A stretch of 64,000 bases of DNA from an uncultured bacterium (GCA_963813815.1 CAWFAD010000016.1:1-64000), one strand, 5' to 3'. Shown: positions 52,031 through 54,152, numbered from the stretch's first letter. Translations and numbers: made by a program. The notes: generated from the sequence alone by a model not told the origin.

Positions 52031-54152
52031 GGGATAATCCACGCCCCCGCGCGGGGGGCGACTGCAGCTCACTCGACCGACCGCGAGCCGATCGGCTGTT
52101 TCAATCCACGCCCCCGCGCGGGGGGCGACCGACTGGTTCGGCAGAGTCGATGCGTGACCGTCGACGTTTCAATCCACGCCCCCGCGCGGGGGGCGACCTG
52201 ATGTCACTGCCAATGCGCGTGAGCGTCGATCCGTAGTTTCAATCCACGCCCCCGCGCGGGGGGCGACGCCTATCACCGCTCATGGCGCTACTGGCGATCG
52301 TAGTTTCAATCCACGCCCCCGCGCGGGGGGCGACCAGCAGCGTCTCGCGGATGTCACGGTAGACGATTCAGGTTTCAATCCACGCCCCCGCGCGGGGGGC
52401 GACGTCGCGATCTGGCCGAACGTGCAGGCACATGTGCTGTTTCAATCCACGCCCCCGCGCGGGGGGCGACGCGCCGGCCTGTCGCCAACGGCGTCGAGCA
52501 TAGACGTTTCAATCCACGCCCCCGCGCGGGGGGCGACCTCGCGACTCGCGGGCGAACGCGCTGCGAGAGCTGTTTCAATCCACGCCCCCGCGCGGGGGGC
52601 GACGATCGCGATCACGCGACCGCAGACTGGCGCTGACGTTTCAATCCACGCCCCCGCGCGGGGGGCGACTGACGTCGTCCGACGCATGTCCATGCACTGG
52701 TGGCTGTTTCAATCCACGCCCCCGCGCGGGGGGCGACCTATCGATGTCGACGCATCGTATTCGCGGTTGCCATATGTTTCAATCCACGCCCCCGCGCGGG
52801 GGGCGACGAGTGGCGACTGAGCAGATTCTGATCTGGTCTACCGATGTTTCAATCCACGCCCCCGCGCGGGGGGCGACGTCGAACGTCCAGTAGCAATCGA
52901 GCAAGGCATGCATGTGTTTCAATCCACGCCCCCGCGCGGGGGGCGACGGTCGCCTCACCGACATCGATGACGCTGCTATCTGCTGTTTCAATCCACGCCC
53001 CCGCGCGGGGGGCGACCACGGATGCCGACGATAGCACCTGCGAAGCCGCATGTTTCAATCCACGCCCCCGCGCGGGGGGCGACCGTCGCTGCTTCAGGTG
53101 TCGTCGATCGTCGGTACGTTTCAATCCACGCCCCCGCGCGGGGGGCGACGCAGCAGGCCGAGCGACATCCGCGTGCCGCATGCACCTGTTTCAATCCACG
53201 CCCCCGCGCGGGGGGCGACCCGGAGACCGATGACGGTCAGCCTGCGCGTCAACTCGAGTTTCAATCCACGCCCCCGCGCGGGGGGCGACTGTGCACGCCT
53301 AACGCTGACCGGGTCCTAGCATTGTTTCAATCCACGCCCCCGCGCGGGGGGCGACCGTCTGCCTGTCGGCTCCAGTACCAGATGTCATGTTTCAATCCAC
53401 GCCCCCGCGCGGGGGGCGACCGACCTGCTGGACGTCGCTGCGGTCGCAGCGTCTGTCGTTTCAATCCACGCCCCCGCGCGGGGGGCGACTGCAGATCGCG
53501 CTGCAGTGATGCTGACAGTGCTTGCAGTTTCAATCCACGCCCCCGCGCGGGGGGCGACGCCGATCGGACGTCGCGACCGGTTAGGCTGCCATTGTCGGTT
53601 TCAATCCACGCCCCCGCGCGGGGGGCGACGCGTCGCGGCTGCACGTTCTGAGCGATCGACTCGTAGTTTCAATCCACGCCCCCGCGCGGGGGGCGACGTC
53701 GTAGCGCTGTCGTGCCGCGGCTTACGATCGTCGTTTCAATCCACGCCCCCGCGCGGGGGGCGACGTGCGGCAGGCGACCTCATGCGGACAGTCATCGTGT
53801 TTCAATCCACGCCCCCGCGCGGGGGGCGACGCGGCAGTTCGCAGATGCGCTCGACATCGATGTGTTTCAATCCACGCCCCCGCGCGGGGGGCGACGCAGG
53901 CTCGACCGTACTGCGACATCGGCGCAGCTGAGTTTCAATCCACGCCCCCGCGCGGGGGGCGACACGACGCGATACGTTTCGAGCAGCACCGTGTACGGTG
54001 TTTCAATCCACGCCCCCGCGCGGGGGGCGACCTCGGAACCGGCATCGCCAGTGCTTCGATCGTGACGTTTCAATCCACGCCCCCGCGCGGGGGGCGACTG
54101 CGACCTAGCTATCGCTCATGGTGCGATTGAGTTTGTTTCAATCCACGCCCCC
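52031..54152 (-). CRISPR. Orphan CRISPR array with type I-C-like 32-bp repeat: 30 full and 2 partial repeats, 31 spacers of 33-39 bp
   Basis: Repeat GTTTCAATCCACGCCCCCGCGCGGGGGGCGAC (reverse complement ends ATTGAAAC and carries an internal hairpin); counted by hand; no cas genes in the window. Confidence 0.9.

Follow-up and report, generated by a model that had tools for sequence, protein, structure and literature searches.

Among described systems, pDV of Nitratidesulfovibrio vulgaris Hildenborough (NC_005863.1) carries an array of clustered regularly interspaced short palindromic repeats (CRISPR) with 28 repeats, which adjoins an annotated type I-C operon, cas3-cas5c-cas8c-cas7c-cas4-cas1c-cas2. 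We examined an array of the same repeat family in a stretch of 64,000 nucleotides (nt) from an uncultured bacterium (GCA_963813815.1, CAWFAD010000016.1:1-64000); this whole stretch is referred to below as the window. Two of the pDV repeats are identical to the window repeat and 25 others counted differ from it by 1 nt, and because this match is to an array beside an annotated I-C operon, we assign the repeat family to type I-C. The two arrays also share a hairpin-plus-tail repeat shape and a similar repeat-spacer unit length of about 66-70 nt. They differ in that the window array is devoid of cas genes, has no leader, and ends in cut-off repeats. They differ further in their spacers: those of pDV are 34.0 +/- 1.05 nt long, with a normal doubled-letter fraction (identical adjacent bases) of 0.203 and 22.9 homopolymer runs per kb, whereas those of the window are nearly run-free. 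Our results make it very probable that each window spacer is a consensus, or "median," sequence derived from reads with identical I-C repeats but unrelated spacers, and that it probably occurs in no cell.

The array lies on the minus strand and occupies a block of 2117 nt (52036..54152) that comprises 31 repeat-spacer units plus 13 nt, with both ends inside a repeat. Thirty identical 32-nt repeats of the type I-C (Dvulg-type) family (52098..54098, minus strand) extend from a first exact copy at 52098-52129 to a last one at 54067-54098. The repeat reads GTTTCAATCCACGCCCCCGCGCGGGGGGCGAC on the plus strand and GTCGCCCCCCGCGCGGGGGCGTGGATTGAAAC on the minus strand, where it folds into a 7-bp GC hairpin followed by an 11-nt tail (...GGATTGAAAC); a search of the repeat against Rfam gave no family above the gathering score. 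All 30 exact copies retain a run of five C's and a run of six G's. The 31 spacers interleaved with them (52063..54134, minus strand) measure 33-39 nt and sum to 1112 nt; they are run-depleted and likely consensus products. By analogy with the pDV locus, transcription would proceed on the minus strand, and a leader would be expected beyond 54152. The trailer-end repeat (52031..52062, minus strand) shows four mismatches over its full length. As its last 5 nt (52031-52035) are flank, with the joint at 52035/52036, only 27 nt are repeat, and we regard it as truncated rather than degenerate. On the leader side, a half repeat (54135..54152, minus strand) is limited to the last 18 nt (3' end) of the repeat and is followed directly by flank. 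In plus-strand numbering, the block thus runs from repeat position 6 to repeat position 18. The repeat places the array in type I-C. Of the features of a working locus we found neither cas genes, nor a leader, nor whole end repeats, and the spacers do not look like copied DNA. The absence of cas genes from the flanks and of Cas1 from the genome is a likeness to orphan CRISPR arrays. Orphan arrays normally retain whole end repeats and degenerate over time; in the window array, in contrast, 30 repeats are perfect and both termini fall within a repeat.

The depletion of homopolymer runs in the spacers is confirmed as a real property of the assembled sequence. Our recount agreed exactly with that of the initial annotation: no run in the 31 spacers is longer than 3 bases, and there are only four of that length, a GGG each in spacers 8 and 19 and a TTT each in spacers 29 and 31. 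Composition-preserving shuffles (2000 draws) yielded 51.1 +/- 6.3 runs with a minimum of 33. Random window pieces of the same length (2000 draws) contained 41.1 +/- 6.1 runs (minimum, 21). Identical adjacent bases were found at 124 of 1081 positions in the spacers, versus 273.8 +/- 13.9 in the shuffles and 248.0 +/- 14.4 (minimum, 202) in the window pieces. Even when the dinucleotide frequencies of the spacers themselves were used, in a first-order Markov chain (2000 draws), 12.8 +/- 3.5 runs were obtained, and 0.45% of the draws contained 4 or fewer. The depletion is uniform along the array, with 1-8 identical pairs per spacer versus about 8-9 in natural arrays. The rest of the 2.53-Mb genome has a normal run spectrum: all 9148 tiles of 1100 nt contain at least 197 identical adjacent pairs (mean, 257.6; standard deviation [SD], 18.8). 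A search of the genome for other run-free islands returned only four 150-nt windows with 14 or fewer doubled letters and no second block. In a literature search, at the level of search listings, we found no published description of a run-free spacer signature.

In order to compare run statistics with those of other I-C arrays, the species genomes of GTDB were scanned with the repeat pattern, which yielded at least 121 loci. As comparators we retained 43 arrays that had 8 or more spacers of 28-45 nt, each bounded by two pattern matches, the remaining loci being too short to measure; what follows on these 43 holds among the matches listed. The identical-adjacent fraction is bimodal. The main group of 38 arrays ranges from 0.209 to 0.327 (mean, 0.271; SD, 0.031) with 24-76 runs per kb, and a low group of five arrays ranges from 0.101 to 0.154 with 1.8-8.6 runs per kb. 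The window spacers, with a fraction of 0.115 and 3.6 runs per kb, lie 5 SD below the main group. All five low arrays (L021, L023, L063, L065, and L071) come from metagenome-assembled genomes (MAGs) with MFD isolate names, that is, from the Microflora Danica long-read collection. The signature is present in 5 of 11 MFD arrays and in 0 of 32 others (Fisher's test, p = 4.8e-4), or, counted per MAG, in 5 of 10 and 0 of 31 (p = 3.4e-4), where it should be considered that arrays from a single project are not fully independent. It is likewise found in none of four plasmid I-C arrays of cultured isolates (spacer GC, 0.57-0.63), which have fractions of 0.203-0.245 and 22.9-40 runs per kb. Among the matches listed, the comparison proposed by the initial annotation singles out one collection. 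According to its published description (PMC12313526), the MFD MAGs derive from Nanopore reads; Flye 2.9.2 (--meta --nano-hq) was used for assembly, followed by a single round of Medaka 1.8.0.

The five low arrays share with the window the repeat family, the degree of depletion, broadened spacer lengths, and a low mutual edit distance. Their record titles are Isosphaeraceae, Acidobacteriota (two), delta proteobacterium, and Alphaproteobacteria. A Cas1 gene lies within 1 kb in four of the five, which makes these ordinary CRISPR loci that share the odd spacers. The four that adjoin Cas1 have full end repeats and leader-like flanks, whereas the window array is an orphan and truncated. L063 carries natural-looking spacers at both ends, unlike the window array, which is depleted throughout, and both L063 and the MFD array L101 mix natural-looking and run-free spacers within a single array. 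Some further peculiarities of the MFD arrays were observed. The run-free arrays are all from MAGs named bin.2.x, and the normal MFD arrays (L013, L014, L080, L101, L110, and L119) are from bin.1.x (four), bin.c.1 (one), and bin.2.69 (one); this split may reflect the coverage or microdiversity of later binning rounds, or chance. The Cas1 gene beside L021 (G041:C25:83818-84701) is in three adjacent pieces in different frames, which looks like the result of assembly indel errors. In L023, L101, L065, and L071, the hairpin runs of some repeats are longer by one G or C than those of neighboring copies.

A plain model of consensus formation reproduces the spacer profile. The simulation pool consisted of 499 distinct natural I-C spacers with a GC content of 0.63, from 13 normal arrays picked post hoc by size and GC content (at least about 0.57). 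A median string was obtained by hill climbing to the lowest summed alignment cost over a set of unrelated natural spacers. With unit costs, the doubled-letter fraction fell from 0.248 to 0.198 with 3 reads, 0.154 with 6, 0.142 with 12, and 0.133 with 25. With 10 reads and an unmatched consensus letter costing 0.7, the fraction was 0.131, with 4.7 runs per kb and a length of 34.6 +/- 1.2; at a cost of 0.5 the respective values were 0.114, 3.3, and 39.3 +/- 1.4. The window spacer length of 35.9 +/- 1.7 lies between those of the two simulated costs; the natural spacers have a fraction of 0.248, 40.2 runs per kb, and a length of 34.3 +/- 1.2. The 16 dinucleotide odds of the window spacers correlate with those of the simulations (r = 0.95-0.97) and of the five odd arrays (r = 0.97), and far less with those of natural spacers (r = 0.57). 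In a mixture model of one true spacer plus unrelated ones, the fraction was 0.12-0.13 with up to 3 of 12 true reads and at least 0.19 from 4 of 12 onward. The uniformly low fraction in the window thus suggests that in almost every slot each allele accounted for at most about a quarter of the reads. The view of the initial annotation that a long-read assembler had averaged heterogeneous arrays is consistent with all tests made here and is supported by this simulation together with the restriction of the signature, among the matches listed, to one collection.

Further signs of averaging are found within the spacers. The normalized edit distance is 0.490 among window spacers and 0.487 between these and the odd arrays; the corresponding values are 0.557 for natural spacers and 0.551 for window spacers after shuffling. 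Natural spacers display a strong 3-periodicity in GC (contrast of 0.365 versus 0.239 in shuffles; SD, 0.006), as expected for copies of coding DNA. In the window the contrast is 0.292 versus 0.240 (SD, 0.023), and in the five odd arrays it is 0.253 versus 0.232 (SD, 0.014); codon periodicity in the window spacers is largely lost. The motif TCGC, an echo of the repeat start, occurs in the last 8 nt of 10% of the window spacers, 16% of those in the odd arrays, and 3.6% of natural spacers. This slight excess might point to register slippage, but the numbers are small and we do not rely on them.

We propose that the 32-nt repeats would anchor reads from different arrays in register, and that between the anchors a polisher would seek the sequence that aligns best, with free indels, to all of the unrelated read segments. 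Such a median sequence would favor the commonest dinucleotides (CG, GA, TC, GC, and AT) and avoid doubled letters, its base composition would stay roughly normal, and its length would wander. We infer that the assembly of the window itself arose by such a consensus. The situation resembles the population consensus in strain-variable regions of MAGs, where one sequence also stands for a mixture of molecules. A population consensus usually corresponds to the majority allele, whereas here no allele has a majority, and the output is therefore likely a sequence that no molecule has. The ingredients of such a mixture are available: the identical 32-nt repeat is also present in MAGs of other taxa, and contigs in all four metagenome runs examined carry the repeat beside other, normal-looking spacers; 10 such inter-repeat strings, 295 nt in all, contain 9 runs of at least 3 bases. 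In these four runs, parts of the array have little or no cover, which argues neither way, as the source sample is seemingly not among them. When 24 sequencing runs were compared, the best contained 0.29 of the stretch's words and none contained half or more.

The surroundings of the block bear on the origin of the mixed reads. It begins 26 nt upstream of the likely ATG (52010) of an M49-like peptidase gene (50328..52010, minus strand; PF03571, E value of 7.5e-12), whose signal-peptide-like N terminus, MSRGLIVMCMVFIALAMSPGC, resembles a lipoprotein signal. An AAGGA-like ribosome site is seen at 52020-52024 on the minus strand, so that this site and the ATG lie 11-26 nt from the block. On the other side is an M20/M25/M40 peptidase gene (54279..55610, plus strand; PF01546, E value of 1.5e-32). 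Among 10 flanking open reading frames no cas gene was found, the only matches being to peptidases and a methyltransferase. Cas1 was not found in the window's genome, which is 90.8% complete, in a search that among cas families covered Cas1 and Csd1 only; Csd1 (PF09709) gave no match there, but none in control genomes either. A leader next to a complete first repeat is not present, as the half repeat at 54135-54152 abuts sequence that in array-less strains is contiguous with the left flank. Such strains are represented by contigs X1 (1068 nt, 13 + 7 differences) and X2 (158 nt) from two metagenome runs. Their flanks are about 98% identical to those of the window, and they join 52035 directly to 54153 with no letters shared at the joint, which defines the extra block as 52036-54152; neither target duplication nor microhomology is visible. 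In 10 same-genus genomes with both flanking genes on one contig, only about 190-730 nt separate the two genes. The loci of five relatives, four of which span the gap between the peptidase genes, contain no repeat motif. The locus of the closest GTDB relative (L131, G001:C8, 2540-3265; 88% flank identity) has about 620 extra nt between the peptidase genes and no CRISPR repeat. When up to 3 mismatches were allowed, the repeat was detected in none of 40 relatives, a set that includes 24 same-family genomes. For Cas1, a single one of the 40 gave a match (G019, same order) and the 24 same-family genomes gave none, many of the genomes being incomplete. Judged from these genomes, the lineage looks almost CRISPR-free.

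Because Cas1 and the repeat were found in none of the 24 same-family genomes, and Cas1 was not found in this genome, the mixed reads probably came mostly from arrays of other organisms with the same repeat. An organism without an adaptation module is not expected to form a population with many different spacers. Accordingly, of the suggestion in the initial annotation that heterogeneous strain arrays had been averaged, the averaging is supported, and an origin in the organism's own strains is less likely than one in the arrays of other organisms. The same circumstance is also a difficulty, and several points do weigh against the consensus explanation. Without Cas1, spacer turnover in the organism's own population is unexpected, and the misrecruitment of foreign reads is an extra assumption. 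The heterogeneity of reads at the array locus is deduced rather than observed, and a long-read assembly of the window's genome is only suggested by its 16 contigs for 2.53 Mb, the largest of 672 kb. Among the matches listed, 6 of the 11 arrays from the same Nanopore collection are normal, and therefore the pipeline alone is not the cause of the signature. A weak residual 3-periodicity, about 2.3 SD over the shuffles, persists in the window spacers. The simulation used a toy model based on edit distance in place of Flye or Medaka, with a gap cost of our own choosing. Finally, a column plurality taken on a MAFFT alignment gives the opposite result, with identical-adjacent fractions of 0.26-0.35 and a rise in GC content to 0.70-0.85; we rejected this type of consensus as the mechanism, as it raises GC and runs. 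In the model, the signature is indicative of a consensus in which every read is free to align on its own, which is how likelihood and graph polishers work; the link to Flye and Medaka is presumed.

The rival explanations differ in what they take to be real. One is that the spacers are genuine and that their lack of runs stems from an uncommon source or acquisition process, such as a template of alternating composition or nontemplated synthesis. The depletion is extreme and uniform and the repeats are perfect, sequence alone proves no artifact, and the recurrence of the signature in five other arrays among the matches listed could in principle reflect shared biology. We nevertheless consider this highly improbable. 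A biological cause would have to act across several phyla (the records span at least four higher taxa) and yet show in only one sequencing and assembly collection among the matches listed (5 of 11 arrays versus 0 of 32, and 0 of 4 from isolates). Moreover, a plain consensus model reproduces the profile, L063 and L101 combine both kinds of spacer in one array, and adaptation genes (Cas1) were found neither in the window's genome nor in the 24 same-family genomes. Nor did we find a protospacer, which in type I-C systems lies next to a TTC protospacer-adjacent motif. None was detected in 50,697 phage records (best E value of 0.6, partly in a repeat), a scan that did not extend to the IMG/VR viral contigs, and plasmid records matched only in other I-C arrays, aligned through their repeats. 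In the own genome the best spacer match was 16/16 or 22/24, the same as for shuffled controls, and the other loci compared likewise gave nothing beyond such controls. Most natural soil spacers are likewise without matches. Were the spacers genuine, which we strongly doubt, the I-C systems of soil and sediment bacteria would, in several phyla, acquire alternating, homopolymer-free spacers, and only long reads would so far have captured such arrays intact. Somewhat less improbable, although still unlikely, is that real spacers had their homopolymers shortened by basecalling or by a run-length-compressed consensus. Nanopore assemblies do make run-length errors, as the extra G in L023 repeats and the split Cas1 beside L021 illustrate, and a consensus from the mixture model with the true allele at 25% is 85% identical to that allele and already run-depleted. 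Compression would, however, shorten spacers by about a fifth, and the observed lengths exceed those of natural spacers and vary more. The 5-C and 6-G runs are intact in 30 of 30 repeat copies, the genome elsewhere has a normal run spectrum, and the 124 doubled letters that remain would mean that compression was incomplete. Simple homopolymer compression was rejected on spacer length and the intact repeat runs. Since spacer length exceeds that of natural spacers and runs are preserved in the repeats, the effect is one of consensus, and of the two sources named together in the initial annotation, consensus or basecalling, only consensus is retained. Design of synthetic DNA commonly avoids runs, and the array could thus be imagined as designed, but it resides in an environmental MAG, five other environmental arrays among the matches listed have the same statistic, and its spacer lengths are irregular (33-39 nt); we attach almost no probability to this origin.

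A further alternative concerns location and is compatible with consensus-derived spacers: the whole 2.1-kb block may be foreign to the organism and misassembled into the contig, a possibility that we rate as less likely than not. In its favor, both ends lie inside repeats with neither leader nor cas genes. The block is absent from the approximately 98%-identical strains in two runs and from the 10 same-genus genomes, and the repeat and Cas1 occur in 0 and 1, respectively, of 40 relatives. The insertion, if real, would separate the M49-like peptidase gene from its own upstream region, and neither the left nor the right junction between flank and array occurs in 241 million JGI metagenome records. 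On the other hand, both flanks continue exactly at the array-less joint, without loss or duplication. It is unlikely that two chimeric joints would arise independently at one and the same base, and therefore at least some molecules probably carried an insertion here. The alternative to misassembly, the capture of a foreign array fragment, would amount to blunt insertion at a site 26 nt upstream of the likely peptidase ATG. Apart from the exact continuity of the flanks, all else argues that the block is foreign to the lineage.

Returning to spacers that arose by consensus, the implications extend beyond this window. Public species-representative genomes can hold arrays with perfect repeats but spacers invented by consensus, and in a small sample, 5 of 11 I-C arrays from one large Nanopore MAG collection are affected among the matches listed. 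Invented spacers would cause false negatives in the linking of viruses to hosts and inflate counts of "unmatched" spacers, and they could mislead studies of spacer composition or acquisition. Affected arrays can be flagged by a doubled-letter fraction below about 0.16, versus at least 0.21 in natural arrays among the matches listed, and by a wider-than-normal spread of spacer lengths. As the spacers of the window are most likely a product of averaging and not cellular DNA, they are unfit for linking viruses to hosts. For the biology of the organism, the array most likely means nothing, its spacers probably being carried by no cell; the biological interest is low, and the practical value of the finding is as a caution to those who mine long-read MAGs for spacers.

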